Part shown: in pieces, positions 58 to 26,991 of the stretch
How the letters are laid out: each line of letters starts with the position of its first letter
Position numbering within the stretch: position 1 is the stretch's first letter
DNA from: Megasphaera elsdenii DSM 20460
Lineage (GTDB): Bacteria > Bacillota > Negativicutes > Veillonellales > Megasphaeraceae
NCBI RefSeq assembly: GCF_003010495.1
Contig: NZ_CP027570.1
Location: 1,170,001 to 1,202,000 of the forward strand
Length of the DNA: 32,000 nt
Direction of reading: 5' to 3'
Position numbers and translations under genes: made by a program
The notes under the pieces: generated by a model
Told to the model about the DNA's origin: nothing
Seen by the model: only the letters and a program-made list of their open reading frames with translations
Database searches by the model: none

Positions 58-106
58 TGGTCCTATGTCAAGATTTCGGACAAATTAAATTGAGGTTTTT
101 CGTTTC

Positions 107-1021
107 TTAGATTCCCAGACGCATATTATGTTTCTGGAAATCAGCATACAGCTTTTCATAGTCATCCGGTGACATGTAGTTGCAATGGCTATGAATGCGT
201 ACGGTGTTGTAAAAGGTATTGATGTATTCAAACACCAACAAGTACGCTTGCTGATAATTTTGAATCTTGAAGCGATTGAGCCATTCCCGTTTAATCAGGG
301 AGTGGAAGGATTCGATGCAGGCATTGTCCCATGGATAGCCTTTCTTCGAATAGCTGCGGCGCATTTGGGATGTCTCCCGAATATATGCCTGCGAAACATA
401 CTGGCAGCCACGGTCCGAATGGATAACCAACAGCTGTCCGGGTTTCCGGCATTGTTTGGCTTCCTGCAGCATCTTGACGATGCCGGCGACGTCCAGATTA
501 CGGGCCAGATTCCAGGCGATGATTTTCCTGGAGAACAAATCCATAATGCTTTCCAAATAGACGAAACCTTCAGCTGTCCAGATATAGGTGATGTCGCTGC
601 ACCATACTTGATCCGGTTCTTCAGGATTGAAGCATTCCTGAAGGATATTCACCAGCGCCACGTCAAAGTCACTGTTACGGGTCGTTACGGTGTAATGCTT
701 TACCCAGCAGGCCTGAATGCCCATTTGCCGCATGTATACGCCAACTGTGCGTTCAGAGATACTGTCCCCGTTCTGCTGCATAACTTGGGCAATCTTCGGG
801 GCTCCGTAAATCTGCTTGGAATCGTCGTAGATAGTTTGAATCTTTTTCTTCATCTCCTTGCGGTGCTGGGCCTGTTTCGATGGTTTGCGCGCCGCCCAGT
901 CATAATATCCTGAAGAAGAAACGTCGAGTTCAGAAAGCACTCCGGACACCGAAAAACGACGTTCTGCCTGATGGGCATTTTCGGCTTCTTCCTGGACACT
1001 GCGATAGATGGCAATGGTCAT
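107..1021 (-). CDS. IS3-family transposase OrfB (DDE integrase core)
   Basis: 304-aa ORF with rve-type motifs (WCSDITYI, HSDRGCQY, NACIESFHSLIKRE). Its frame is open upstream of the ATG and is -1 relative to orfA, so it is probably expressed mainly as an OrfAB fusion. Confidence 0.93.
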   Translation of the reverse strand: MTIAIYRSVQEEAENAHQAERRFSVSGVLSELDVSSSGYYDWAARKPSKQAQHRKEMKKKIQTIYDDSKQIYGAPKIAQVMQQNGDSISERTVGVYMRQMGIQACWVKHYTVTTRNSDFDVALVNILQECFNPEEPDQVWCSDITYIWTAEGFVYLESIMDLFSRKIIAWNLARNLDVAGIVKMLQEAKQCRKPGQLLVIHSDRGCQYVSQAYIRETSQMRRSYSKKGYPWDNACIESFHSLIKREWLNRFKIQNYQQAYLLVFEYINTFYNTVRIHSHCNYMSPDDYEKLYADFQKHNMRLGI

Positions 1022-1299
1022 TTGTCCAGAATGCTGATAGCTTTTTTTAGGACATTCAACGCATCCTTCGCATCCCGCAGTTCACGCTGCAGACGGGCGA
1101 TTTCCTTAGCTTCATCCGAAGCATAGTTGCCGGAACCACGATAAGGCATTTCGCCATTGTCCTTCAGCTGCTTTTGCCAACGGGACAAGGTTTGTGGAGC
1201 AATACCTAGATTCGTAGCACAGCCAACCAAGCCGAGTTCCCGATGTTCATGATAATATTTAACTGCGTTGATTTTGAATTCTTTGTTGAATTTTGCCAT
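1018..1299 (-). CDS. IS3-family transposase OrfA (helix-turn-helix DNA-binding part)
   Basis: 93-aa ORF with an HTH-like segment (LGIAPQTLSRWQKQ) and a leucine-zipper-like C-terminus. An RBS (aaggagg) lies upstream and the stop overlaps the orfB ATG (ATGA). Confidence 0.9.
   Translation of the reverse strand: MAKFNKEFKINAVKYYHEHRELGLVGCATNLGIAPQTLSRWQKQLKDNGEMPYRGSGNYASDEAKEIARLQRELRDAKDALNVLKKAISILDK
1042..1048 (-). promoter_or_regulatory. Programmed -1 ribosomal frameshift heptamer A_AAA_AAA(G) joining orfA to orfB
   Basis: The minus strand reads GTC CTA AAA AAA GCT in the orfA frame. A slip of -1 gives AAA AAA AGC TAT CAG CAT TCT GGA CAA ATG ACC, which is the orfB frame. Confidence 0.75.
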
Positions 1300-1382
1300 A
1301 CTGAGGCCTCCTTAGTTAATCCTATTGTACCACCATTAGGAACCTCAGTTTGACTTGTCCTATTTATATGCTAACACCAGAA

Positions 1383-1605
1383 TCACGGTTACAGTGACGT
1401 GGAGCACCAAAGCCTCGCCTCATAGGAGAGGTGGCCCGAAGGGCCGGAGAGGTTGACCTCTCAGTCAGCTGCGCTGACAGCTCTCCTAACAGGAGAGCCG
1501 GGCCGCCCTCTGGGACGGCCCCTACGCACGAATCACAGCCTGCGGCCTGCGAACTGCGGGCGCCATGTGAAGCAGCTGCAAGCTGCTTCACTTTATCATG
1601 ATGTA
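1383..1605. repeat. Cluster of GC-rich hairpin repeat modules (mostly reverse orientation) plus TGCGRCC-type heptads (1541..1561) and a 10-bp-stem hairpin (1567..1591)
   Basis: Modules include cctcataggagagg-tggcccgaagggcc-ggagaggttg, cctctcagtcagc-tgc-gctgacagctctcct-aac-aggagagc and gggccgccctctgggacggcccctacgcacga. They match the reverse complements of modules in 16618..17080 and 25064..25507, but in a different order. Confidence 0.8.
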
Positions 1606-8862: not shown

Positions 8863-9405
8863 ATGTCCCGAGTAGGTAGAATGCCTATTGATATCCCGGC
8901 AGGCGTAAATGTAAACCTCGATGGCCACGTAATTACCGTTAAAGGCCCGAAAGGCGAACTCACACGTACGCTCCACCAGGATATGAAAATCACAGTGGCT
9001 GACAACGTCATCACTGTAGAACGTCCGTCTGACGATAAAAATCACCGTGCACTGCACGGCCTCACCCGTGCCCTTATTGCCAACATGGTAAAAGGTGTTT
9101 CGGAAGGCTTCAAAAAAGAACTGGAAATCGTTGGCGTTGGTTACAGAGCACAGATGAAAGGTAAGAAACTTGCCTTGACTCTTGGCTTCTCCCATCCCCT
9201 CGAACTCGATGCTCCGGCTGGTGTCACCATCGAATGCCCGAGCGCTACGCAGATCACCATTTCCGGTGCTGATAACGAAGTTGTCGGCGAATTTGCTGCT
9301 AAAGTCCGCGGCTACCGCCTGCCTGAACCGTACAAGGGCAAAGGTATCCGTTATGTTGGCGAACATGTCCGTCGTAAAGCCGGTAAAGCTGGTACGAAGA
9401 AATAA
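8863..9405 (+). CDS. rplF: 50S ribosomal protein L6
   Basis: 180 aa starting [15 protein letters not shown]. Confidence 0.98.
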
Positions 9406-9435
9406 TTAACCTTTAATTAGAAAGGAGTGAATTCC

Positions 9436-9798
9436 TTGAAGAAGAGTAAAAACACAATCCGTTTGAAACGGCATTGGCGTTTACGCAAGAACATCAACGG
9501 CACGGCAGAACGTCCGCGTCTCAACGTTTTCCGCAGCCTTAACAATATCTACGCTCAGGTCATCGATGACCAGAACGGCGTAACTTTGGTTTCCGCAAGC
9601 TCTTTGGACAAAGAAATCAAAGGTCAGAACGTCAGCGGCGGCAACGCCGAAGGCGCAAAATTAGTCGGTGCTTTAGTTGCAAAACGGGCTATCGAAAAAG
9701 GTATCACGACGGTTGTCTTCGACCGTGGCGGTTACATTTATCACGGCCGTGTTGCAGCTCTCGCTGAAGCAGCTCGTGAAGCTGGCTTGAAATTCTAA
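9436..9798 (+). CDS. rplR: 50S ribosomal protein L18
   Basis: L18 sequence ([12 protein letters not shown]...PRLNVFRS). The TTG at 9436 is about 8 nt after RBS aaaggag. The track start (GTG 9427) overlaps the RBS, so the exact start is uncertain. Confidence 0.92.
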
Positions 9799-9816
9799 TC
9801 AAGGAGGAAATAACAC

Positions 9817-10317
9817 ATGGCAAAAGTTGACCATGCAGGTCTCGAATTACAGGAAAATGTAGTATTCATCAACCGCGTTGCTAAGGTAGTTAAAGGCGGC
9901 CGCCGTTTTTCCTTCAGTGCCCTCGTTGTTGTCGGTGACGGCAACGGCAATGTCGGCGCAGGTTTAGGTAAAGCTGGCGAAGTTCCTGAAGCAATCCGTA
10001 AAGGCGTTGAAGACGCTAAGAAACATATGATTTCCGTTCCTCTCAAGAACGGCTCCATCCCCCACACGATCACAGGTATCTTCGGTGCAGGCAAAGTATT
10101 CCTGAAACCGGCTGCTGAAGGTACTGGCGTCATCGCTGGCGGTCCGGTCCGTGCCGTATTGGAACTGGCAGGCGTCCGCAACATCCTCACCAAATCGATC
10201 GGTTCTTCCAACCCGAACAACATGGTTCAGGCAACCCTCGAAGGCTTGAGCCGCTTGAAGGATGTCAACAAAGTTGCTGAACTCCGTGGCAAAACTGTAG
10301 AAGAAATTTACGGTTAA
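9817..10317 (+). CDS. rpsE: 30S ribosomal protein S5
   Basis: 166 aa with motif [16 protein letters not shown]. Confidence 0.98.
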
Positions 10318-10335
10318 TAAGGAGGATATGACAAG

Positions 10336-10515
10336 ATGGCTCAGGTTAAAGTTACTCTCGTAAAGAGTTTGGCAGGCCGTCCTGGTGACCAGCGCGCAAC
10401 CATCGTTGCCCTCGGTCTCCACAAGACGAACTCCAGCGTAGTAAAAGAAGTTACCCCGCAGATCAAAGGGATGCTTCACAAAGTAGAACACTTAGTAAAA
10501 GTAGAAGAAATCTAA
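10336..10515 (+). CDS. rpmD: 50S ribosomal protein L30
   Basis: Not in the ORF track (59 aa). I translated it by hand as [62 protein letters not shown] ggagg. Expected slot between rpsE and rplO. Confidence 0.93.
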
Positions 10516-10536
10516 TATAGAAGGAGGTGCGCTGAA

Positions 10537-11001
10537 TTGAAACTTCATGAAATGAGTATTGTTCCTGGTTCCAAGAAAAAACGCAACCGCGTCGGCCGCG
10601 GCATCGGCTCCGGCAATGGCAAAACGGCTGGCAAAGGTATGAAAGGTCAGCTCTCCCGTAGCGGTGGCGGCAAGCGCCCGGGCTTCGAAGGCGGCCAGAT
10701 GCCGTTGTATCGTTTGCTCCCGAAACGCGGCTTCAAAAACATTTGGGCTAAAGAATATGCAGAAGTTAACGTTTCTGTACTCAACCGCTTTGAAGATGGC
10801 ACGACTGTCGATCCCGTCGCTCTCGTTGAAGCTGGCATCCTCAAGAATGTCCGCGATGGCGTCCGCATCCTCGGCAACGGTGAACTCGAAAAGAAACTCA
10901 CTGTCGTAGCTAACGGCTTCACGAAATCCGCTAAGGCTAAAATCGAAGCAGCTGGCGGCAAGGTTGTAGTACCGGGAGAAGAACCGGTAGCTGAACAGTA
11001 G
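10537..11001 (+). CDS. rplO: 50S ribosomal protein L15
   Basis: TTG start after RBS aaggaggt. Sequence [30 protein letters not shown]. Confidence 0.97.
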
Positions 11002-16199: not shown

Positions 16200-16538
16200 A
16201 TGGCTTATAGAAAGTTGGGACGAGACAGCTCCGCACGTAAAGCTTTGCTGCGCAGCATTGTCACCTCTTTATTCCAGCATGAACGCATTGAAACGACAGA
16301 AGCAAAGGCAAAAGAACTTCGCAAAGTCGCTGATAAAATGCTTACCCTCGCAAAACGCGGCGATCTCCACGCTCGCCGTCAGGTCTTGGCATACATGATG
16401 GATGAAGATGTTGTCAAAAAACTGTTTGACGAAATTGCACCGAAATACAAAGATCGTCAGGGCGGTTATACTCGCATCATCAAAACTGGCGTTCGTCAGG
16501 GCGATGCTGCTCCGATGGTAATCATCGAATTAGTATAA
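16200..16538 (+). CDS. rplQ: 50S ribosomal protein L17
   Basis: 112 aa starting [19 protein letters not shown]. Last gene of the alpha operon. Confidence 0.98.
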
Positions 16539-16583: not shown

Positions 16584-16618
16584 GAGTGGTTAGTGGCTAG
16601 CAGTTAGTAGTTAGCAAA
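16584..16618 (-). repeat. Degenerate 7-bp tandem repeat, the reverse complement of the CCACTAA family (gagtggt tagtggc tagcagt tagtagt tagcaaa)
   Basis: Read directly. Five heptads abut the terminator hairpin. On the minus strand this is the same heptads-then-GC-hairpin layout seen at 18439..18509, 21221..21260 and 25560..25593. Confidence 0.75.
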
Positions 16619-17080
16619 TGGCTCCCCTGATAGGGGAGCTGTCAGCGAAGCTGACTGAGAGGTTCTTACAGCGACCAGTCGTTCATACACTAATCAGGTC
16701 AACATGACATGGTTTTGCGAACGGCGAACAGCGGCTGCGACCGGCCGTTTATCTCGGACTCAGATGCGGCGTTCCGCCGCGACAGACTCAAACCGACAAC
16801 GACGCTTCGGGAAACCCTCAGCGCGTAGCGGGACGCCCTTTGGGCGTCCCCTACGAAATCGCATTCAGGCGATAATAAATAATCCACGGCCCGTGGCCTC
16901 GTGCGTAGGGGCCGTCCCAACGGGCGGCCCGCCGCGAACAATCGGCTATACACCAATCAGGTCAATGTGGCATGGTTTTGCGACCTGCGACCTGCGGCCT
17001 GCGACCGGTGCGCCCTATGAGGGCGCCCACGACCAACCAACCTCTCCGGCCTTTTAGGCCACCTCCCCTATAAGGGGAGG
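16618..17080 (+). repeat. Composite hairpin-dense repeat element, copy A (5' part, truncated by the IS insertion)
   Basis: Colinear with 25064..25507. It is a chain of 10 or more GC-rich stem-loops plus four TGCGRCC heptads (16979..17006). No reading frame is conserved between the copies. Confidence 0.85.
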
Positions 17081-17129
17081 TGGTCCTATGTCAAGATTTC
17101 GGACAAATTAAATTGAGGTTTTTCGTTTC

Positions 17130-18044
17130 TTAGATTCCCAGACGCATATTATGTTTCTGGAAATCAGCATACAGCTTTTCATAGTCATCCGGTGACATGT
17201 AGTTGCAATGGCTATGAATGCGTACGGTGTTGTAAAAGGTATTGATGTATTCAAACACCAACAAGTACGCTTGCTGATAATTTTGAATCTTGAAGCGATT
17301 GAGCCATTCCCGTTTAATCAGGGAGTGGAAGGATTCGATGCAGGCATTGTCCCATGGATAGCCTTTCTTCGAATAGCTGCGGCGCATTTGGGATGTCTCC
17401 CGAATATATGCCTGCGAAACATACTGGCAGCCACGGTCCGAATGGATAACCAACAGCTGTCCGGGTTTCCGGCATTGTTTGGCTTCCTGCAGCATCTTGA
17501 CGATGCCGGCGACGTCCAGATTACGGGCCAGATTCCAGGCGATGATTTTCCTGGAGAACAAATCCATAATGCTTTCCAAATAGACGAAACCTTCAGCTGT
17601 CCAGATATAGGTGATGTCGCTGCACCATACTTGATCCGGTTCTTCAGGATTGAAGCATTCCTGAAGGATATTCACCAGCGCCACGTCAAAGTCACTGTTA
17701 CGGGTCGTTACGGTGTAATGCTTTACCCAGCAGGCCTGAATGCCCATTTGCCGCATGTATACGCCAACTGTGCGTTCAGAGATACTGTCCCCGTTCTGCT
17801 GCATAACTTGGGCAATCTTCGGGGCTCCGTAAATCTGCTTGGAATCGTCGTAGATAGTTTGAATCTTTTTCTTCATCTCCTTGCGGTGCTGGGCCTGTTT
17901 CGATGGTTTGCGCGCCGCCCAGTCATAATATCCTGAAGAAGAAACGTCGAGTTCAGAAAGCACTCCGGACACCGAAAAACGACGTTCTGCCTGATGGGCA
18001 TTTTCGGCTTCTTCCTGGACACTGCGATAGATGGCAATGGTCAT
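17130..18044 (-). CDS. IS3-family transposase OrfB
   Basis: Identical 304-aa product to 107..1021. Confidence 0.93.
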   Translation of the reverse strand: MTIAIYRSVQEEAENAHQAERRFSVSGVLSELDVSSSGYYDWAARKPSKQAQHRKEMKKKIQTIYDDSKQIYGAPKIAQVMQQNGDSISERTVGVYMRQMGIQACWVKHYTVTTRNSDFDVALVNILQECFNPEEPDQVWCSDITYIWTAEGFVYLESIMDLFSRKIIAWNLARNLDVAGIVKMLQEAKQCRKPGQLLVIHSDRGCQYVSQAYIRETSQMRRSYSKKGYPWDNACIESFHSLIKREWLNRFKIQNYQQAYLLVFEYINTFYNTVRIHSHCNYMSPDDYEKLYADFQKHNMRLGI

Positions 18045-18322
18045 TTGTCCAGAATGCTGATAGCTTTTTTTAGGACATTCAACGCATCCTTCGCATCCCG
18101 CAGTTCACGCTGCAGACGGGCGATTTCCTTAGCTTCATCCGAAGCATAGTTGCCGGAACCACGATAAGGCATTTCGCCATTGTCCTTCAGCTGCTTTTGC
18201 CAACGGGACAAGGTTTGTGGAGCAATACCTAGATTCGTAGCACAGCCAACCAAGCCGAGTTCCCGATGTTCATGATAATATTTAACTGCGTTGATTTTGA
18301 ATTCTTTGTTGAATTTTGCCAT
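18041..18322 (-). CDS. IS3-family transposase OrfA
   Basis: Identical 93-aa product to 1018..1299. Confidence 0.9.
   Translation of the reverse strand: MAKFNKEFKINAVKYYHEHRELGLVGCATNLGIAPQTLSRWQKQLKDNGEMPYRGSGNYASDEAKEIARLQRELRDAKDALNVLKKAISILDK
18065..18071 (-). promoter_or_regulatory. -1 frameshift heptamer A_AAA_AAA of IS copy 2
   Basis: Same sequence context as 1042..1048. Confidence 0.75.
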
Positions 18323-18402
18323 ACTGAGGCCTCCTTAGTTAATCCTATTGTACCACCATTAGGAACCTCAGTTTGACTTGTCCTATTTATATGCTAACAC
18401 CA

Positions 18403-18509
18403 AGGCATAACGACGAACGCATCGCCGAAGGCGATAAGCCACGAGCCACTAACCACGAGCCACTAACCACTAACCACTAACCACTAACCACGGGCTCGCT
18501 ACGCGAGCC
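18403..18509 (+). repeat. 3' part of composite repeat copy A: hairpin atcgcc-gaa-ggcgat, eight CCAC(G/T)A(G/A) heptads (18439..18494), and hairpin ggctcgc-tac-gcgagcc (18493..18509)
   Basis: Read directly. It aligns with 25505..25593 once the IS and one AGG copy are removed. Confidence 0.85.
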
Positions 18510-18531
18510 TACCCCAAAAGGAGTGATATAA

Positions 18532-18966
18532 ATGCCATATCGTATGATGTTAGCTGTCAACTTTACACCGGAACGGCTGGAGCTGGTCAAGCTCCTGGCC
18601 CTCTTGACGAAATCAAAGGTCAAAGCGGTTACGGAAGATGAAAAAAGTGAAACCGTCGGCAAAGTCCTGGGACTGACGGACGATGAAATCGCTGAAATTG
18701 CAGCCATGAAACAGGAAACGGAACAGACCAAGGTCCATGAACAGATGAACGAAGACGAAAATCTTCCGCCTGTGACCAAGGAAGCTCTGATTCTCTGTGG
18801 CTTTGACAACAAGGCCGTCAACCTGCTCTTGAGCAGCATCCGCCGGGGGCGTCTGAAGAATGTTCCCCTCAAGGCGATGTTGACGCCGAACAACATTTCC
18901 TGGACTATCGAAACGATTTTGCAGGAATTGTCGAAAGAACACGAATATTTCCATAAAAAGAGGTAA
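18532..18966 (+). CDS. DUF3783-like small protein (function unknown)
   Basis: 144 aa. The C-terminal part (ILCGFDNKAVNLLLSSIRRGRLKNVPLKAMLTPNNISWTIETILQELSKEHEYF) resembles the DUF3783 pattern as I recall it from clostridial proteins. RBS aaaggag. Confidence 0.6.
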   Translation: MPYRMMLAVNFTPERLELVKLLALLTKSKVKAVTEDEKSETVGKVLGLTDDEIAEIAAMKQETEQTKVHEQMNEDENLPPVTKEALILCGFDNKAVNLLLSSIRRGRLKNVPLKAMLTPNNISWTIETILQELSKEHEYFHKKR

Positions 18967-19566: not shown

Positions 19567-19684
19567 TATAAGGTATTAGTAGGTGATAAAGGTCACATAA
19601 TCACTTGTTACAGTTTTGCATATATACATTAGTATAACGTATATCTTTTATTTGATTTTCATAATGAAGTGGAGTTGGATAAGT

Positions 19685-21214
19685 ATGAAGAAGATGAATG
19701 CGGCTTTGATGGCGGCTTTTGTGCTGACCTTAGGCATGACTACGGGAGCTTGGGCAGCCCCGGCGACGACGGCCAATGTTTCGGTAGACAGCCCGTACTA
19801 TGGCTATATCGAAAAGCTGAGTGCCATGGGCTATCTCGATACCATGCCCAACGGGGCCAAACCATACAGCCGCATGCAGATGGCACAGTGGGTCGTCCAG
19901 GCCCAGGATAAGGCCCAGACCAAGCCTATGCCAAAATACTTGTCCGATGAAGTCGAAGCCCTGGCGCAGTACGTAGCGCCGGAAGTGGCGACCCTGCGCG
20001 GGGAAAAGACCTATGATCCGTTGAAGCTCCGTTCCGTTTCGCTGACGGCAGCAGCCCAGCTTTCGGATACGCCGCGCCATTCTTATAGCCGCGTGGTTAA
20101 CGCCGGCTGGCAGACTTTCGGCGCTGACCGCAATGGTTATAAATACGGCCGCGATGGTAACGGTATCTTGGAAGCCGAAATCTCCGGGAACATCGGTCAT
20201 GAAACGGCTATTGCCCTGCGGCCCCGCTTCAGCTATGACAAGGATAATGATTTCAGTGCCAGCCTGGAAGAAGGCTATATCAAGACCCGGGCCGGTATCT
20301 GGGCTTTTGAAGCCGGTAAACAGGCCATGACCTGGGGACAGGGGGAAACGGGGAACCTCGTCTTAGGCGACAACATGCGTCCCTTGACGACCATCCAGGC
20401 CCACTTCATGGAACCCCAGCGCGTCGGTGGTTTCTTCCGTTTCCTCGGCCAGGCCGACGTCCATCTCTTCTACGGCTTCCTCGAAGACGACCGCTCCGGC
20501 CGCGCGAATGCCCAAGATTACGATAATGCCGGTCTCTTTGGCATCCGTGCCGATTTCTCGCCAACGTCGTACTTCACGTTTGGCGTATCCCGCCTGTCCA
20601 TGCTCGGTGGTGACGGCAATGGCTTGGATAGCTCTGACTGGGGGCATTGGCTCTATGGCCGTAACGATGATCGCGACCAGGACCGCTGGGACGACATCGC
20701 CGGCGGTGACTTTCGCTTGAGCCTGCCCGGTGTCACCTTCTACGGTGAACTTTACGGTGAAGACCAGTCCCACTACATGCCGTCTAAAGTGGCTTACCGG
20801 GCCGGTATGTATCTGCCGAAGTTGGCCCATGACGGCTCGTGGGATATGACCTTGGAAATGGCCGACACCAGCGACGCCTGGTACGGTCATCAGCGCTTCA
20901 AGAACGGCTGGACCTATCATGACGCCATCATGGGTGACGCCATGGGCCGCGATGCCCGCAAATACTACGGCGCGATCCGCCATTATTTGCCCAACGAAAC
21001 ATCTCTCGGCCTGTACGCCCAGCGGACGGAAATGGAACGGGGCATGAGCCCCCATCCCACAGTCAATGAATTCGGTCTGACTGGCCAGACAAAACTCGGC
21101 CAGGACGTCTACCTCAACGGCATCATCGGCTACGCCAAGGTAGAAAACGCTGACTTCACGGTCCGTACAGACCACGACAAATTCGCCACTGCCACCATCC
21201 AGTGGAGATACTAG
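19685..21214 (+). CDS. wzi: Capsule assembly Wzi-family outer-membrane protein
   Basis: Signal peptide MKKMNAALMAAFVLTLGMTTGAWA/AP. Motifs shared with E. coli K30 Wzi: WGQGETGNLVLGDNMRP, FYGELYGEDQS and MGDAMGRD. The ATG at 19685 is preferred over the track start at 19616. Confidence 0.8.
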   Translation: MKKMNAALMAAFVLTLGMTTGAWAAPATTANVSVDSPYYGYIEKLSAMGYLDTMPNGAKPYSRMQMAQWVVQAQDKAQTKPMPKYLSDEVEALAQYVAPEVATLRGEKTYDPLKLRSVSLTAAAQLSDTPRHSYSRVVNAGWQTFGADRNGYKYGRDGNGILEAEISGNIGHETAIALRPRFSYDKDNDFSASLEEGYIKTRAGIWAFEAGKQAMTWGQGETGNLVLGDNMRPLTTIQAHFMEPQRVGGFFRFLGQADVHLFYGFLEDDRSGRANAQDYDNAGLFGIRADFSPTSYFTFGVSRLSMLGGDGNGLDSSDWGHWLYGRNDDRDQDRWDDIAGGDFRLSLPGVTFYGELYGEDQSHYMPSKVAYRAGMYLPKLAHDGSWDMTLEMADTSDAWYGHQRFKNGWTYHDAIMGDAMGRDARKYYGAIRHYLPNETSLGLYAQRTEMERGMSPHPTVNEFGLTGQTKLGQDVYLNGIIGYAKVENADFTVRTDHDKFATATIQWRY

Positions 21215-21220
21215 GGAACA

Positions 21221-21260
21221 CCACGAGCCACTAACCACTAACCACGGGGCCTTCGGCCCC
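21221..21260 (+). repeat. Short heptad-plus-hairpin module: ccacgag ccactaa ccactaa ccacggg, overlapping hairpin ggggcc-ttc-ggcccc
   Basis: Read directly. It lies between the wzi stop and the RBS of the next gene. Confidence 0.8.
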
Positions 21261-21275
21261 AAACGGAGAACAATC

Positions 21276-22070
21276 ATGATAGACATTCACTCACATATTT
21301 TATACGATATTGATGATGGCTCTGAATCATTGGACATGTCCCTGCAGATGCTGCGCATGTCTGTGGATTCGGGAGTCACCGATATTATTGCGACGCCTCA
21401 TGTCAATCGACAAGGACACATTCCGTCCTGGCAGACCATCCTTGACAAGGCAGCAGCCCTTCAGGAGGAAGCGGATAAGGCCAATATTCCTATTCGTATC
21501 CATACGGGGGCCGAAGTAGAACTTAACGGCGATACGTTACGTTTCATGAAGGAAAATCACGACGATTATTGTCTGGCCGGCAGCCGCTATGTCATGTTGG
21601 AACTGACGGACCAGTCTCAGCCGGATATTGTGGAAAAGATGATATATGAGTTGCAGATGCGCGGCTTCCTGCCACTTCTGGCCCACGTAGAACGCTATGA
21701 GCGCCTCATGGAACGTCCGGAAACGCTTCTGGCATGGATGAATAAGGGCGTCCTGGCTCAATGCAATACAGGCAGTTTCACGGGCTATTTCGGCTCAAAG
21801 TTGCAACAGCGCGTCCGCGACCTCTACCGCAATAATATGATTCATTTCCTCGGCAGCGACGGTCATCGCGTGGAATTCCGCACGACGGATATCCGTCAGG
21901 CCCATGAAGAATTAGATCGCTTGGCCGCCAAGGAAAAGCCGCATGTCAATCTTTGGAATACAGCGACGCGTAATGCTGAATATATTTTGAAACACCGCGT
22001 CTTTTATCCCGATTTGCCGTCGCATTGGCAAAAAGAGAAAAAAGGCTTTTTCCATCGTCTCTTTGGTTGA
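21276..22070 (+). CDS. cpsB: CpsB/CapC-family (PHP-domain, metal-dependent) protein-tyrosine phosphatase
   Basis: N-terminus MIDIHSHILYDIDDGS...ATPH is typical of this family. Capsule-locus context. Confidence 0.88.
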   Translation: MIDIHSHILYDIDDGSESLDMSLQMLRMSVDSGVTDIIATPHVNRQGHIPSWQTILDKAAALQEEADKANIPIRIHTGAEVELNGDTLRFMKENHDDYCLAGSRYVMLELTDQSQPDIVEKMIYELQMRGFLPLLAHVERYERLMERPETLLAWMNKGVLAQCNTGSFTGYFGSKLQQRVRDLYRNNMIHFLGSDGHRVEFRTTDIRQAHEELDRLAAKEKPHVNLWNTATRNAEYILKHRVFYPDLPSHWQKEKKGFFHRLFG

Positions 22071-22089
22071 ATTTAGGATGTGAATAAAT

Positions 22090-22746
22090 ATGTTGAAGAA
22101 AAGTATACTGGCGCTGGCTGTCGTGACTGCCTTATGGACCGGGACGGCCTGCGCTGAAGAATATTATATGCGCCCTGGCGATGAGCTCAACATCGTCGTC
22201 ACCCAGCAGCAGGATTTAGGCAATTCATCGACGAATCAGTCGCCCTTCGTCGTCCGGCCCGATGGTAACGTATCGTTTCCCTTAGTCGGGGAAATCCACG
22301 CCGAAGGCATGACGGTCTCCCAGTTCACAGATGTCTTGCAGCAGGGCTTGTCTCGGTATATTGTCGATCCCGATGTATCTGTCAATATTTCCAAGTTAGG
22401 CCGCGTCCGGGTCTACGTCTTCGGCGAAGTCCGTAAACCCGGTGCGGTAGAGTTAGACAAAGGCCATACGGTCATCGACGCTATCGGCGCGGCCCAGGGC
22501 TTTACGCGGGATACGGCGAAGAAGAAGATTTTCCTCATCCATCAGGACCAACCGAAATCGCTCATCCCCATTAATCTCAATAATATGCTCAAAACTGGCG
22601 ACATGTCGCAGAATGTCACCCTCCGCGAAGGGGACATCCTCTACTTGACCAAGAATCATCGCATCGACTTTGCTCGCGATATTGCGCCAATCTTTAGCAG
22701 TATCTATATGATTACCGAAGCGAAAGACAACTTAGATAATAACTAG
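22090..22746 (+). CDS. wza: Polysaccharide export protein (OPX/Wza family, short form)
   Basis: 218 aa with a signal sequence, a Poly_export-like segment (PGDELNIVV...G.VSFPLVGEIHAEGMT) and an SLBB-like segment (VYVFGEVRKPGAVEL). Confidence 0.85.
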   Translation: MLKKSILALAVVTALWTGTACAEEYYMRPGDELNIVVTQQQDLGNSSTNQSPFVVRPDGNVSFPLVGEIHAEGMTVSQFTDVLQQGLSRYIVDPDVSVNISKLGRVRVYVFGEVRKPGAVELDKGHTVIDAIGAAQGFTRDTAKKKIFLIHQDQPKSLIPINLNNMLKTGDMSQNVTLREGDILYLTKNHRIDFARDIAPIFSSIYMITEAKDNLDNN

Positions 22747-22772
22747 TATTTCCCATACAGGAGTTGAACAGG

Positions 22773-24230
22773 GTGGAAGAAATAACCATTGATTTGAAGG
22801 ACCTCTTTCAAGTCGTCATGGACCATAAAAAGAAAATCGCTGCCATTACGGCGGCCTTCATGATTGCCGGAGGGGCCTATCTCTGCATTGCTTCGCCAGT
22901 GTACCAGTCGACGTCGCTATTGCGCATCAAGCAGGATAAAGGCTTGGGCGACTCGATCATGTCTCAGGTGTCCGGGGGCAATACACTGGACGATAAGCAG
23001 CGCATGATGACGGATGCGGAAATCCTCAAGAGCCGCAACGTCGTCCTGCCGGTCATCGAAAAGACAGAAGAACGAAATGATGACGGCGAATTACCCGATT
23101 ATGAAAGTTACGTTAAAAAGCACATCGTCACCAAACCGTATAAAGATACGGAAATCTTGGAAGTCGACGTCACAGGCAAATCGCCGGAACAGGCCCAGCA
23201 GGCCAATAATCTTATTGTCCAGGGCTTTATGAACCGCCTGACCGAACTGAGTCATGACGAACAGAAGCGGACCCGCGAGTTCCTGGAACAGCGGCTAGGT
23301 GCTTCTAAGGATGAACTGAGCCAGGCCGAAGACAAACTGCAGCAGTACCAAGCTGCCAATAAGATGTACTCCACAGATGACCAGATGAAACAGCTTACGG
23401 ATAAGCTGAACATCGTTGACAAGGCTAAGGCTGAAAACCAGCTCAATTTGGAAACGGCCCAGGCCGGCTTGAACAGTGTCAATGAACAGCTCAGCTCGGC
23501 TGGCGTCTCCATTGCCGACAGCCCGGCCATTCAGCAGTACAAGACCCAGCTGGCTCAGTTGGAAGCGACGAAAGCCAGCTACGTCGGCAAATACACGGAT
23601 GAACATCCAAAGATGCAGGAAATCAACAACCAGATCAACTCCACCCGTGATTCCCTGAACCAGGAAATCAGCAAGATCGTTTCCCAGCAGGCGCCGTCCA
23701 GCAACAGCGTCCAACAGGGATTACTGGCCGATAAATTCAAGAACGAAGCGGCCATTGCCGTAGCCCAGAGCAAGAAGACCGCTTTGGACCAGATGGATGC
23801 CCAGAACGACGCCATCATTTCATCGCTGCCGGAAAAAGAACAGGGCTTCGTCCGGGTCAAGCGCGATGCCGACGTTTCCAACGAAATCTACGTTATGCTG
23901 GCCAAACGATTGGAAGAAGCCAAGGTCGCCGAAGTCATGGTGCCGAATGAAGTCCAGGTCATCGATGCGGCTACACTGCCGGAAAAACCGATTAAGCCGC
24001 GAAAGGTCTTGATTATGGCCATTATGACCTTATTAGGGCTCATCGTCGGTATGGGGACCGTCATCGTTCAGTCTCTCATGTATCGCAAGATACGGACAGC
24101 TGAAGATGTGGAAAAAGAATTGGGCTTGCCTGTCTTGGGCATGATTCCCGATACCAGCACCTTACAGGTAGAAACGGGAAGCAGCGATGGTTTGTGGTCG
24201 AAAATTAGGAGGAAATTATGGCGGAAATAG
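22773..24230 (+). CDS. Polysaccharide co-polymerase (Wzz/GumC-type chain-length determinant; transmembrane and periplasmic part of a split Wzc)
   Basis: N-terminal TM plus Wzz-like motif, a long coiled-coil region, and a C-terminal TM (VLIMAIMTLLGLIVGMGTVIV). The GTG at 22773 has better spacing from GGAG than the track start (TTG 22764). The start is uncertain by 3 codons. Confidence 0.85.
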   Translation: MEEITIDLKDLFQVVMDHKKKIAAITAAFMIAGGAYLCIASPVYQSTSLLRIKQDKGLGDSIMSQVSGGNTLDDKQRMMTDAEILKSRNVVLPVIEKTEERNDDGELPDYESYVKKHIVTKPYKDTEILEVDVTGKSPEQAQQANNLIVQGFMNRLTELSHDEQKRTREFLEQRLGASKDELSQAEDKLQQYQAANKMYSTDDQMKQLTDKLNIVDKAKAENQLNLETAQAGLNSVNEQLSSAGVSIADSPAIQQYKTQLAQLEATKASYVGKYTDEHPKMQEINNQINSTRDSLNQEISKIVSQQAPSSNSVQQGLLADKFKNEAAIAVAQSKKTALDQMDAQNDAIISSLPEKEQGFVRVKRDADVSNEIYVMLAKRLEEAKVAEVMVPNEVQVIDAATLPEKPIKPRKVLIMAIMTLLGLIVGMGTVIVQSLMYRKIRTAEDVEKELGLPVLGMIPDTSTLQVETGSSDGLWSKIRRKLWRK

Positions 24231-24916
24231 ATTTCATCACCCATTATGACAGCCGGTCGCCCGTATCCGAAGCCTATCGGGCTATCCGGACGAATTTGCA
24301 GTTTGCCGGTGCTGGAAAGCAATTGAAAACCCTCGTCTTTACGTCGGCCATTCCTGGCGAAGGGAAATCGACGACTGTTGCCAATTTAGCTATCGCCATG
24401 GGACAGGATGATAAAAAAATCCTGCTCATAGACTGTGATATGCGTAAGCCCGTCGTCCACCGCCGCTTCGGCCTCTTAAACCGGGGCTTGAGCAACTGCT
24501 TTGCCGAAGACCTGCCGCTGAAAGAAGTCATCCAGGCCGACGTCTTCCCCAACCTGGACGTCGTCACTAGCGGCCCGGTTCCGCCGAATCCGGCAGAACT
24601 TCTGGGATCGAAGAAAATGGAAGCCTTATTGCAGGAAGCAGCGGAAACCTATGACTACGTTTTCTTGGATATGCCGCCGGTCCTGGCCGTCACTGACGCT
24701 GCCCTCATGAGTAGCCGGGTAGATGGCACCGTCATTATCCTGGGCAGTGGCGACATCGGCCCAGATGAAGGCAAACAAGCCAAATCCCTCCTGGAAAAAG
24801 TCCACGCCAACATCCTAGGCGTCATACTGAACAAAGTTCCGCAGCACCACAAGAGCGGCTACTATTACTACTACTATTATGACGAAAACCATAATAAAAA
24901 ACGTAAAAGACGCTAG
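24218..24916 (+). CDS. CpsD/CapB-family bacterial tyrosine kinase (BY-kinase) catalytic subunit
   Basis: Walker A GEGKST, Walker A' LLIDCDMRKP, Walker B VFLDMPP, and a C-terminal run of seven Tyr (GYYYYYYYDE). There is a 13-nt overlap with the upstream PCP gene. Confidence 0.92.
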   Translation: MAEIDFITHYDSRSPVSEAYRAIRTNLQFAGAGKQLKTLVFTSAIPGEGKSTTVANLAIAMGQDDKKILLIDCDMRKPVVHRRFGLLNRGLSNCFAEDLPLKEVIQADVFPNLDVVTSGPVPPNPAELLGSKKMEALLQEAAETYDYVFLDMPPVLAVTDAALMSSRVDGTVIILGSGDIGPDEGKQAKSLLEKVHANILGVILNKVPQHHKSGYYYYYYYDENHNKKRKRR

Positions 24917-25600
24917 CCTCCCCTGCGAAGGGGAGGCGCAGGCCGCAGTTCGCAGGCCGCAGGCCGCCTCGGACTCAGATGCCGCTGCGCGGCGACGGAC
25001 TCAAACTGACAACATCGCCTCGAGTAACCCTCGGCTCGTAAAAAACGCCCCTTTGGGGCGCGTATGGCTCCCCTGATAGGGGAGCTGTCAGCGAAGCTGA
25101 CTGAGAGGTTCCTACAGCGACCAGACGGCCATACACCAATCGGGCCAATGTGGCATGATTTTCGCGAACTGCGACCGGCGTTTATCTCGGACTCAGGTGC
25201 CGCTGCGCGGCGTCAGACTCAAACTAACAACGACGCTTCGGGGGTACCCTCAGCGCGTAGCGGGACGCCTTTCCAGGACGTCCCCTACGGAGTCGCATCC
25301 AGGCGATAATAATTATCCACGGCCTGTGGCCTCGTGCGTAGGGGCCGTCCCGGTTAGGGCGGCCCGCCGCGAACAGTCGGCCATATAACTTGCGAGCTAA
25401 TGTGGCATGGTTTTGCGAACTGTGGTCTGCGACCGGCGCGCCCTACAAGGGCGCCCACGACCAACCAACCTCTCCGGCCTTTCGGCCACCTCCCCTATGA
25501 GGGGAGGCTTAACGACGAACGACCTGCGACCGACGCGCCCCCGTGAGGGCGCCTACGAACCACTAGCCACTAGCCACTGGGGCCACCGGCCCCAATCCTC
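24917..25600 (+). repeat. 704-bp intergenic block made entirely of hairpin modules and heptad repeats. It contains composite repeat copy B (25064..25593).
   Basis: Colinear with 16618..17080 plus 18406..18509. It also holds an extra partial module set at 24917..25063, including inverted TGCGRCC heptads (24941..24968) and a duplicated cggactcag-hairpin-gactcaaac module. Confidence 0.88.
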
Positions 25601-25620
25601 ACGAAAGGAAGGAAAAGGTC

Positions 25621-26991
25621 ATGAAGACCCGTGTTTATCCTACGTCACGTAAACTCTTTGGCTTACTCGGAGACGTGACCATCATTACCTTAACTTACAT
25701 ACTCCTGACCTATTTGATTATTCCGCCAGGCGCACGGGCTATGAATCATGCCTTATATTCCGGTATGTTGCCTGTTGTTATCATCTTTTCAGTCATGATG
25801 TTTAGCATCAATGGCCTGTATACCATCGAGCACAAGCGATTCAGCGAAGTCCTCATCAGCCTGGCAGTCAGTCTATTCTTGGTTCTCATCCTCATCATGG
25901 CCTTGAGCTTCGTAATCCATGAATTCGCTTATTCCCGCGTTTTGATTGTCACCAGTACGGCTGTGCAATTCGTCTTGCTCGGTTTGTGGAAGCGGGCCGT
26001 CCAGCATTGGGAACAGAGCCTTCATCCCGTTCGCCAGGTCATGATTATAGGCAATGAAGACGAATGCCGCCATGTCTATTATCGCATGAGTGCTCAGCCA
26101 CAGCTTAAAATGCAGCTCCAGCACGTCATCATGGATCCGCAGACCGATTGGCGCCAGAAATTGGAAGCTTGTGATATCGATACGCTCATCATCTGCTCAG
26201 ATATCCCCATTGCCACGAAAGCCAAAATCGTCAATTATTGTACGGATAAGGAAATTCAACCATACATCATTCCCGGTTCTTATGAAATCTTTTGTAACGG
26301 GGCCATGCTCCAGAAAATCGATGACGTGCCCGTCTTCCGGCCTAAGAGCCTGCGCCTCAGCGTAGAACAGCGGGCGGTCAAGCGCACTGTCGACATCATC
26401 TTGGCTGGCATCGCCGCTATCTGCGCCTTGCCCTTCGCCATCCCCGTCGCCTTGGCCATCAAACTCGGCGACGGCGGTCCCATCCTCTACAGCCAGGTCC
26501 GCGTCGGCCGCTTTGGCAAGGAATATAAGGTTTATAAATTCCGTTCCATGCGCGTCGATGCCGAAAAATATTCCGGTCCCCAGCTGGCCACCGAAGACGA
26601 CCCGCGCATTACCAAAGTCGGCAAATTTATCCGCGCCACCCGCCTCGATGAACTGCCGCAGATCCTCAACGTCCTCAACGGCGACATGAGCCTCGTCGGC
26701 CCGAGACCCGAACGGCCGTACTTCGTCGAACAGTTTAAACAAGAAAACCCTGAATACGCCTATCGCCATAACGTCAAACCGGGTATTACCGGCTTAGCCC
26801 AGGTCTTTGCCAAGTACAACACAACGCCTTATGACAAACTCGTCTACGACCTCATGTACATCGAAAACTACAGCATCTTAGAAGACTTCGTCATCATGAT
26901 CCAGACCATCAAGATCCTAGTCACCAAGAGCGCCACCGAAGGCAAAGACGTCAGCGGCAAAGACCTAGACCTGAGCAAATTTGAACGCTAA
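25621..26991 (+). CDS. Initiating polyprenyl-phosphate glycosyl-1-phosphate transferase (bacterial sugar transferase, WbaP/CpsE-like)
   Basis: 456 aa with N-terminal TM segments and a C-terminal domain carrying KFRSM, DPRITKVGKFIRATRLDELPQ and SLVGPRP. Confidence 0.92.
   Translation: MKTRVYPTSRKLFGLLGDVTIITLTYILLTYLIIPPGARAMNHALYSGMLPVVIIFSVMMFSINGLYTIEHKRFSEVLISLAVSLFLVLILIMALSFVIHEFAYSRVLIVTSTAVQFVLLGLWKRAVQHWEQSLHPVRQVMIIGNEDECRHVYYRMSAQPQLKMQLQHVIMDPQTDWRQKLEACDIDTLIICSDIPIATKAKIVNYCTDKEIQPYIIPGSYEIFCNGAMLQKIDDVPVFRPKSLRLSVEQRAVKRTVDIILAGIAAICALPFAIPVALAIKLGDGGPILYSQVRVGRFGKEYKVYKFRSMRVDAEKYSGPQLATEDDPRITKVGKFIRATRLDELPQILNVLNGDMSLVGPRPERPYFVEQFKQENPEYAYRHNVKPGITGLAQVFAKYNTTPYDKLVYDLMYIENYSILEDFVIMIQTIKILVTKSATEGKDVSGKDLDLSKFER

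Follow-up and report, generated by a model that had tools for sequence, protein, structure and literature searches.

What kind of element fills a spacer inside an exopolysaccharide (EPS) operon with GC-rich hairpins is the question raised by the stretch of DNA analysed here, a window of 32,000 nt from Megasphaera elsdenii DSM 20460 (HE576794.1 ~904708-936707). The hairpins occupy a 704-nt spacer (24917-25620) between the gene of a Wzc-like kinase (24218-24916) and that of a priming sugar transferase (25621-26991). They run from stop codon to start codon, beyond the span first noted, and part of them (25064-25507, 444 nt, referred to here as the block) recurs as a paralogous copy at 16618-17080. 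The original prediction took the repeated part for one coherent element of ~0.5 kb under selection for secondary structure of RNA or single-stranded DNA. The block is instead a non-coding mosaic of independent palindromic modules, similar to a BIME, and not a single structured RNA. Two of these modules, A and B, probably, though by no means certainly, derive from a cassette with a DUF559 nuclease gene and were copied by way of this nuclease. The mosaic corresponds in Firmicutes to the BIME/REP and BoxC clusters of enterobacteria and is no discrete RNA gene.

Independent palindromic modules

Modules A and B are double hairpins of ~45 nt each without a GTAG tag, and they form the two ends of the block. 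Read on the minus strand, module A is CCTCTCAGTCAGC-ttc-GCTGACAGCTCCCC-tatca-GGGGAGCC, while module B is CCTCTCCGGCC-tttc-GGCCACCTCCCC-tatga-GGGGAGG and is inverted relative to A. They align as variants of one architecture, CCTCTC(A/C)G-hairpin-(A/C)(G/C)CTCYCC-loop-GGRGAG(C/G)C. Their inverted placement lets them base-pair with one another in the consensus fold (columns 5-21 with 452-468), and the block therefore begins and ends with an inverted pair. Its interior holds modules called C and D and two GTAG-tagged hairpins (25257-25288 and 25338-25365), which together make an inverted REPIN-like dimer with the tags inside. One more hairpin lies between the second of these and module B, and a small one between the first module C and module A. 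All hairpins quoted in the original prediction are present, and its comparison with BIME/REP mosaics is borne out by the architecture; the inverted A/B pair, the insertion sequence (IS) that splits the paralogous copy and the link to BoxC and DUF559 were absent from it.

The DSM 20460 DNA sampled for comparison included the window and five other 21-kb pieces entered via a multicopy IS transposase; the sample in which GTAG hairpins were counted measures 151 kb, or 6% of the genome, and is biased to repeat-rich IS flanks. Across many spacers of the five other pieces we found A/B pairs, arrays of module C (for example L134 3503-4031), tandem GTAG dimers and partial combinations of these. Within the window itself, the module order and orientation at 1410-1525 differ from those of the block, an abutting A/B pair (1410-1501) being followed by a minus-strand GTAG hairpin at 1500-1525. 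On the related contig L128, the unit B(+) A(-) occurs four times with a 130-nt period (9158-9642). Both there and in the mosaics of the window, palindromic units alternate in orientation with conserved linkers, as in BIME clusters.

Strains differ in the interior of the block and not in the presence or absence of the whole. The orthologous spacer between rplQ and a DUF3783 gene measures between 264 and 900 nt in eight strains and metagenome contigs; the outer A hairpin and module B are kept, and the interior is missing, shortened or partly duplicated. In another strain (L002) the EPS spacer has ~80 nt extra, and in one strain the transferase gene has a plain promoter upstream and no repeats. 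Because the modules are shuffled, the interior is variable and one strain is repeat-free, the block is not a 0.45-kb RNA under structural selection. No Pfam match was obtained for the ORFs (open reading frames) crossing the two copies, in agreement with the original view that the block does not code for protein.

The A/B modules belong to a superfamily that is spread over gut Firmicutes. A 24-mer of module A, GCTGTCAGCNNNGCTGACTGAGAG, has exact matches in at least 120 stretches of species-representative genomes, and the hosts among the matches listed include Oscillospiraceae, Ruminococcaceae, Lachnospiraceae, Monoglobus, Christensenellales, Phascolarctobacterium and Megasphaera. With a covariance model, R1, 97 copies of the A and B types were recovered from 49 of the 24-mer loci. 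In their alignment (A4), which was fitted to the model structure and so favours pairing, though the margin is large, 97.1% of cells are paired (42-64% in slid controls) and 9 of the 13 pairs change on both sides. Doubly changed cells number 95, as against 19.6 +/- 3.4 in shuffled alignments, and none of 500 shuffles reached the observed value. The compensatory stem changes claimed in the original prediction are thus real for both hairpins of the A/B family as a whole. The two copies compared there say little by themselves: 2 changed pairs are compensated on both sides, 7 still pair after a one-sided change and 13 are broken. That differences fall mainly in loops holds as a trend between these copies (substitutions at 9.9% of locally paired and 14.8% of unpaired positions), without significance (Fisher p = 0.14).

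Pairing in the A/B stems shows no strand asymmetry: G.U and A.C cells are both rare (6 and 8, respectively), and the modules occur in both orientations within same-strand operons. This indicates that the pairing is kept without a preferred strand, as for DNA palindromes and not as for a sense RNA. Few of the hairpins have T-tracts.

A stem mismatch, CTCTCC/GGCGAG (T.C on one strand, G.A on the other), recurs in the Firmicutes modules (window 1410-1454, L028, L034, L037) and in the BoxC consensus. We had considered the variant CTCGCC/GGAGAG as a G.U wobble marking the functional strand; this was dropped, as the mismatch is found on both strands and the G.U and A.C counts are 6 and 8.

A/B modules and DUF559 endonuclease genes

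When the ORFs at module-centred loci were clustered, the only recurrent small family was a DUF559 protein of ~120 aa, found at 7 loci. At six of these its gene lies less than 200 nt from a module, with modules on both sides. To test this independently, DUF559 peptide patterns were used to retrieve 80 metagenome loci, which were then scanned with R1. In this set, which represents one DUF559 subfamily and was seeded from module-bearing loci, 64 loci carry a module at most 150 nt away from the gene, 38 of them upstream, 50 downstream and 24 on both sides. Per locus, the first 100 nt contain 0.53 modules upstream and 0.73 downstream, a density that falls to about zero beyond 600 nt. The flanked proteins form 53 clusters at 95% identity (from 68), so that duplicate loci do not explain the link.

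The modules usually frame the gene as an inverted pair, and they stand in a fixed orientation and register. Upstream of the gene minus outnumbers plus by 34 to 12, and downstream plus outnumbers minus by 39 to 19, so that the CCCTCTC ends mostly face the DUF559 gene. The stop codon lies inside the downstream module at 32 of 79 loci, with a modal offset of -22. The upstream module ends at most 10 nt from the predicted start codon in about nine loci, and at three of the seven module-centred loci its GGAGAGG end stands 5-9 nt before the ATG, at the place expected for a ribosome-binding site (RBS). The association of A/B modules with DUF559 genes is strong.

The protein matches Pfam DUF559 (E 2e-28), the PDB entry 3HRL (E 9e-20) and, more distantly, the homing endonuclease I-Bth0305I (3R3P, E 1e-3), and NCBIfam links it to PRK09767 (YcjD). 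Residues D53, E64, D66 and H70 are invariant, and more than 7,000 close relatives were scored. Judged from its sequence, it would have a nuclease fold with conserved catalytic residues, as is typical of homing endonucleases. In these matches it resembles the Vsr-like, EDxHD homing endonucleases and YcjD, but unlike the I-Bth0305I type its gene is free-standing, without intron or intein, and framed by multicopy hairpin repeats. A defence-system library gave weak matches to restriction-type nuclease domains and nothing stronger. The protein shares its fold with the mismatch-specific nuclease Vsr.

In contigs of the M. elsdenii type a single DUF559 gene occupies a fixed locus, upstream of a His_Phos_1 gene, and RefSeq names members of this array-linked cluster as M. 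elsdenii proteins. The gene sits in one spacer of a tandem A(+)/B(-) array with a 130-nt period (L189), and the gene-less spacers of the array look like deletion derivatives of the gene-bearing one. The only allele without the gene (L128, compared with L189) is an IS-associated replacement. In M. sueciensis one or two tandem copies are found, with a module 36 nt upstream of the ATG.

The block has the same (-)...(+) topology as the cassette, 357 nt of other repeats standing where the cassette has the ~370-nt gene, and the A/B pair at 1410-1501 is an exact gene-less form of it. We infer that the block is a non-autonomous relative of the cassette, comparable to a MITE (miniature inverted-repeat transposable element) or a REPIN, which gained GTAG hairpins and modules C and D and was then copied once.

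As an observation in its own right, the cassette is tandemly duplicated in M. sueciensis CP116939.1 (L220 3001-4123, compared with L219/L221) and in one M. elsdenii-type contig (L233 1863-2872). Close relatives of the genomes concerned have a single cassette, which suggests that the tandem copies arose by unequal recombination between flanking modules.

A similar arrangement is seen in enterobacteria. BoxC elements are 56-bp GC-rich imperfect palindromes with ~20-30 members per E. coli genome. In E. coli K-12 (L241, 1351039-1351830) ycjD ends in ...CCCTCTCCCTGA; downstream come a partial duplicate of the ycjD 3' end and then a BoxC copy, eco:9, a repeat found at a median of 16 places per E. 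coli genome. Enterobacter- and Klebsiella-type orthologues stand at non-syntenic sites. Like ycjD they end within BoxC repeats; the hairpin loop of the unit contains their stop codon, and more BoxC units follow. On either side of a high-GC relative stand CTCCCTCCCC...GGGGGAGGG hairpins; the loci outside E. coli are L242, L244 and L246.

The BoxC consensus, CCCTCACCC-TAA-CCCTCTCCCC-nnn-GGGGCGAGGGG (~50-56 bp; members in PMC2267715, supplementary file 69), shares with A/B the core hairpin (the second one of A/B) CCCTCTCC(C)-loop-(G)GGAGAGGG, also written CCCTCTCC/GGGAGAGG, and a 5' CCCTCNCC block resembling a direct repeat (CCCTCNC). Both also have the recurrent mismatch CTCTCC/GGCGAG and clusters with inverted units, and both occur fused to a DUF559 gene at its 3' end, the unit containing the stop codon. 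They differ in that A/B has an extra conserved first hairpin, GTC-stem-GAC, where BoxC has ~3-4 nt, and the hosts belong to different phyla. The two thus appear related in architecture and gene context, A/B not being members of BoxC. In the literature we found no description of the A/B repeats or of their DUF559 link, and no paper tying DUF559 or ycjD to BoxC or to any repeat.

The following mechanism would account for these features. The A/B pairs would be gene-less derivatives of the DUF559 cassette; the nuclease would nick or cut hairpins extruded from the DNA, and recombinational repair would copy or rearrange the pairs. This would be a partnership like that of REP and RAYT but with another nuclease. 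GTAG hairpins would be spread separately by a RAYT-type enzyme, and recombination at the level of modules, together with slippage, would build and reshuffle the mosaics. We suggest more tentatively that DUF559/YcjD PD-(D/E)xK endonucleases might be the cognate partners of the CCCTCYCC-hairpin repeats in both phyla (A/B and BoxC). If this partnership is true, it might be the conserved mismatch CTCTCC/GGCGAG that the enzyme, itself related to a mismatch endonuclease, recognises.

The same association could arise if DUF559 were a free-standing selfish gene, like that of a homing endonuclease, entering pre-existing A/B or BoxC doublets that had spread otherwise. The sequence relation to I-Bth0305I, the non-syntenic sites of the enterobacterial orthologues and the position of the gene exactly between an inverted pair that is also found gene-less (1410-1501; the 130-nt units of L189) are consistent with this. 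Even so we consider it unlikely, since the stop codon at many loci and the RBS at some lie inside the modules, which fits co-evolution as a unit better, and M. elsdenii has a single gene locus though A/B pairs stand at many of the sampled sites.

GTAG hairpins, the two copies and other origins

REP elements of the GTAG type are palindromic units 20-40 bp long, made up of a GC-rich stem (6-13 bp) and a short loop, with a conserved unpaired GTAG at one end (Di Nocera et al., 2013, PMC3733652). They number ~100 or more per genome and frequently form head-head or tail-tail inverted dimers, and the main text of this GTAG/CGTC survey does not mention Firmicutes (PMC3733652). The M. elsdenii hairpins agree with this description in stem and loop size, unpaired tag and inverted dimers. 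With one hairpin rule for all, the 151 kb contain 55 GTAG-tagged hairpins compared with 4-20 for eight control tetranucleotides; the number, ~50 in a sample biased to repeat-rich IS flanks, would extrapolate to hundreds per genome. Their stem mismatches on the tag strand are T.G (22), A.G (6) and C.A (4). Three tandem dimers lie at L134 11266-11811, and a further example reads GTAG GGGACGCCC-aaa-GGGCGTCCC.

The search for a RAYT proposed in the original prediction was apt in view of these hairpins, but no such gene was found. E. coli RayT, a single distant query, had no phmmer match among 5,639 ORFs in 1.09 Mb of fetched loci, and PF01797 (Y1/HUH) is absent from the called genes of the M. elsdenii samples (~6% of the genome). 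These negatives bear on the idea that a RAYT-only system of the REP/REPIN/BIME kind (Y1, IS200-like) moves or maintains all modules including A/B, the adjacency of DUF559 being incidental. The enrichment of GTAG hairpins (55 compared with 4-20), the T.G wobble on the tag strand, the inverted dimer at 25257-25365 with features of the GTAG superfamily (PMC3733652) and remnants of IS605-type TnpB in the genome all speak for it. We nevertheless regard it as improbable, since A/B modules are untagged and are concentrated at DUF559 genes in a fixed orientation and register that a RAYT does not predict.

The mosaics are also sites of insertion. The paralogous copy is cut at 17080 by an IS3-family element flanked by a 3-bp AGG duplication (17078-17080 and 18403-18405), and strains without this IS have a continuous spacer at the rplQ locus. 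The block at 16618-17080 is an old paralogous copy that was later split by the insertion. The IS3-family element has at least seven copies in DSM 20460, and 3-bp target duplications were seen at nine of ten copies examined (window 58-1379 and 17081-18402; loci L127-L136, with the IS at 9643-10964 in each). Of these ten, six are located within or next to repeat DNA, and four are 8-15 nt from a GTAG hairpin. The copy in L128 has no duplication and stands in place of the DUF559 gene. Other insertion sequences, IS1397 and ISKpn1, are known to target BIMEs.

The end-to-end alignment of 25064-25507 with 16618-17080 claimed in the original prediction was reproduced by blastn of the spacer against the window (E 5e-118). 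The identity, 83.1% over 468 columns, is slightly lower than the 85-90% given there, and the longest gaps measure 14 and 7 nt, where the prediction had one of 18. Its continuation from 18406 is real, the IS3-family element lying between the two parts, but weak (25505-25578 with 18403-18471, 70% identity). Both copies have the same orientation, 8.4 kb apart, and are the only two full colinear ones in ~150 kb. The block folds better than shuffled sequences as DNA (25064-25507, z = -4.6), and so does the spacer as RNA (24917-25620, z = -6.9). Neither the window nor 11 cassette loci had a hit in Rfam 15 at the gathering threshold, and scanning 24880-25640 by E-value returned matches at chance level and nothing else. 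The statement that no known family of non-coding RNA is recognisable here therefore stands.

It is quite improbable that there was no dedicated mobility at all, with one local segmental duplication within a 9-kb region and hairpins that are decayed terminators or neutral palindromes. Such an event would agree with the presence of only two full colinear copies 8.4 kb apart in one orientation, and with similarity that runs slightly past module B. However, the modules occur at many unlinked loci and in other genera, their pairing is maintained by compensatory variation, and T-tracts are few. Least probable of all is a discrete structured RNA acting in cis under RNA-level selection, a long leader or intercistronic element by which the downstream mRNA would be stabilised, processed or attenuated. 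Both copies do share the strand of the gene that follows closely, without a promoter or terminator predicted inside, and the RNA fold is good (z -6.9). Against it, Rfam gave no match, modules stand in either orientation in same-strand operons without G.U/A.C asymmetry, the interior is dispensable and variable among strains, one strain has a plain promoter without repeats before the same transferase gene, and the stem/loop contrast of the two copies is not significant.

Several points weigh against the origin of the A/B modules from a DUF559 cassette, which we nonetheless prefer. Hairpin cleavage by DUF559 is a proposal, and neither an A/B pair nor the block was observed to move. Neither a DUF559 gene nor a remnant of one was found by tblastn in the window or in ~250 kb of Megasphaera DNA including ~150 kb of DSM 20460, and in M. 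elsdenii the gene stands at a single fixed locus, unlike an active transposon. The module types are swapped, A(-)/B(+) in the block and B(-)/A(+) in the M. elsdenii cassette, so that the block is not a simple deletion derivative of the present cassette. No target-site duplication is seen at the block ends; the likeness between the copies continues for ~15 nt past module B before it becomes weak, and plain segmental duplication of spacer DNA may explain the copies. Because no RAYT was found, the part of the mechanism that concerns GTAG hairpins is without an enzyme. With R1, the E. coli BoxC region gave a best E of 0.39, which is not significant. The fit of A4 to the model structure and the seeding of the 80 loci, both given above, belong here as well.

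Repeat sites of the window and their meaning

The coordinates of the modules and of the other repeat sites are collected in Table 1.

Table 1. Repeat modules, insertion sequences and related features of the window.
Feature	Position	Strand	Details
IS3-family copy, second and identical	58-1379	-	GAA duplication; in repeat DNA, 14 nt from GTAG REP 16-40
B(-) 1410-1454 abutting A(+) 1455-1501	1410-1501	.	Inverted-pair layout of the DUF559 cassette, no gene between
Paralogous copy of the block	16618-17080	+	A(-) 16618-16664, D, C, GTAG REPs (16825-16854 and 16905-16930), D, B(+) from 17039
IS3-family insertion sequence, 1322 bp	17081-18402	-	orfA 18041-18322, orfB 17130-18044
Remainder of the spacer of copy 1	18406-18531	+	Hairpin, heptamer array CCACTAA (18437-18491), hairpin GGGCTCGC-tac-GCGAGCC, RBS
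Hairpin and heptamers	24917-24967	+	CCTCCCC-tgcgaa-GGGGAGG directly after the stop codon, then CGCAGGC x4.4 (24937-24967)
Module C, first copy	24968-25040	+	82% identical to second
Module A, double hairpin, left block end	25064-25110	-	R1: 71 bits, E 5e-21
Module D, first copy	25111-25180	+	74% identical to second
Module C, second copy	25186-25259	+	
GTAG-tagged REP hairpin	25257-25288	.	GTAGc GGGACGCC-tttccag-GACGTCCC CTAC; stem-abutting tag on minus strand
GTAG-tagged REP hairpin	25338-25365	+	GTAG GGGCCGTCC-cggtta-GGGCGGCCC; T.G wobble on tag strand
Module D, second copy	25363-25431	+	
Module B, sister double hairpin, right block end	25467-25510	+	R1: 45.7 bits, E 1e-12
Leader module just before RBS	25535-25593	+	Minus-strand GTAG hairpin 25535-25556, heptamers CCACTAG 25560-25578, hairpin GGGGCC-acc-GGCCCC 25579-25593
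Degenerate B-like module just after the sugar transferase stop codon	26994-27040	-	Weak: R1 E 0.12

The layout of the leader module recurs upstream of the genes starting at 18532 and 21276, and three RBSs are directly preceded by a 7-nt tandem array (CCACTAA or CCACTAG) and a short GC hairpin (18437-18512, 21220-21262 and 25552-25593). With their 7-nt period, these arrays place a stop codon in each of the three frames on either strand. Elsewhere, in other taxa, TAATCAC heptamers come after an A module and precede an RBS (L011, L092, L035, L089). Two further heptamer arrays, GCAGGCC and CTGCGAC, are mutual reverse complements (24937-24967 compared with 25414-25440, 16979-17006 and 1538-1559) and pair across ~450 nt in the RNA fold of the spacer.

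The rplQ gene (16200-16538) ends a ribosomal-protein/rpoA operon and is followed by two small genes; the EPS operon contains wzi, cpsB, wza, the wzc-like gene, the priming transferase and glycosyltransferases. Neither a sigma-70-like promoter nor a plus-strand terminator is predicted inside the spacer at 24917-25620. The spacer is therefore probably transcribed and effects on the EPS transcript are plausible: the hairpins would be part of the operon mRNA and may alter its stability or read-through.

The EPS locus itself varies among M. elsdenii strains (L225 3917-4095 and L226 4095-6435, compared with window 19616-24916). One contig lacks wzi-wzc; its priming transferase comes after a NUDIX gene, across a 180-nt spacer with a terminator, a good promoter and no repeats. 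Different genes occupy the locus in yet another contig. A gene for an RVT_1 reverse transcriptase of 468 aa follows the EPS genes ~3 kb past the window end (L001 19272-20678). Several short-read contigs from Logan (L003-L006) terminate 168-284 nt upstream of the transferase gene, within the repeat spacer; evidently the mosaic breaks short-read assemblies. In the 'complete' DSM 20460 sequence a run of N truncates an IS605-type TnpB gene (L135 ~1650-2800; HE576794.1 near 1.36 Mb), and GTAG-like hairpins stand at the border of this region.

How do these repeats relate to known systems? Interspersed palindromic repeats fill much of the intergenic DNA of bacteria, and to our knowledge only the REP family has a known cognate enzyme, namely RAYT. 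The mosaic resembles REP, BIME and REPIN systems in its short GC-rich palindromes, mostly downstream of genes, its alternating orientations and its GTAG-tagged inverted dimers. It resembles REP/RAYT in having a single-copy nuclease gene flanked by its own repeats and IS3-family elements in the repeats. The gene embedded in A/B, however, encodes a PD-(D/E)xK (DUF559) nuclease and not an HUH/Y1 enzyme, no RAYT was found, and the sequences differ. As the units are not the PU sequences Y, Z1 and Z2, the mosaic is an analogue and not a member of the E. coli BIMEs.

We know of no nuclease gene associated with the pneumococcal BOX modules, and the presumed agent of RUP mobility is an IS630-type transposase. 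BOX, RUP and SPRITE are likewise modular, hairpin-forming intergenic repeats of a Firmicute that are transcribed with neighbouring genes (PMC3049150), but they have no sequence similarity to the modules described here. With MITEs the block has in common its small size (~0.45 kb), the lack of coding sequence and inverted terminal modules shared with a coding relative; it differs in that no target-site duplication was seen, the coding relative is a Vsr-like nuclease and not a known transposase, and the ends are themselves hairpins.

In practice, operons such as the EPS locus acquire spurious ORFs and come to differ in length between strains through these repeats, and the DUF559 link may point to the origin of such repeats. 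As far as we know, BoxC has stood in E. coli catalogues for decades without an origin or function, and DUF559 is a very large family without an assigned role. The oriented, register-fixed fusion of DUF559 genes to repeats in many Firmicutes and three enterobacterial genera provides a testable hypothesis for both orphans. If it is true, this would be a second nuclease/repeat partnership of the REP-RAYT kind, or a minimal IS-like element with a Vsr-like nuclease as its sole protein.

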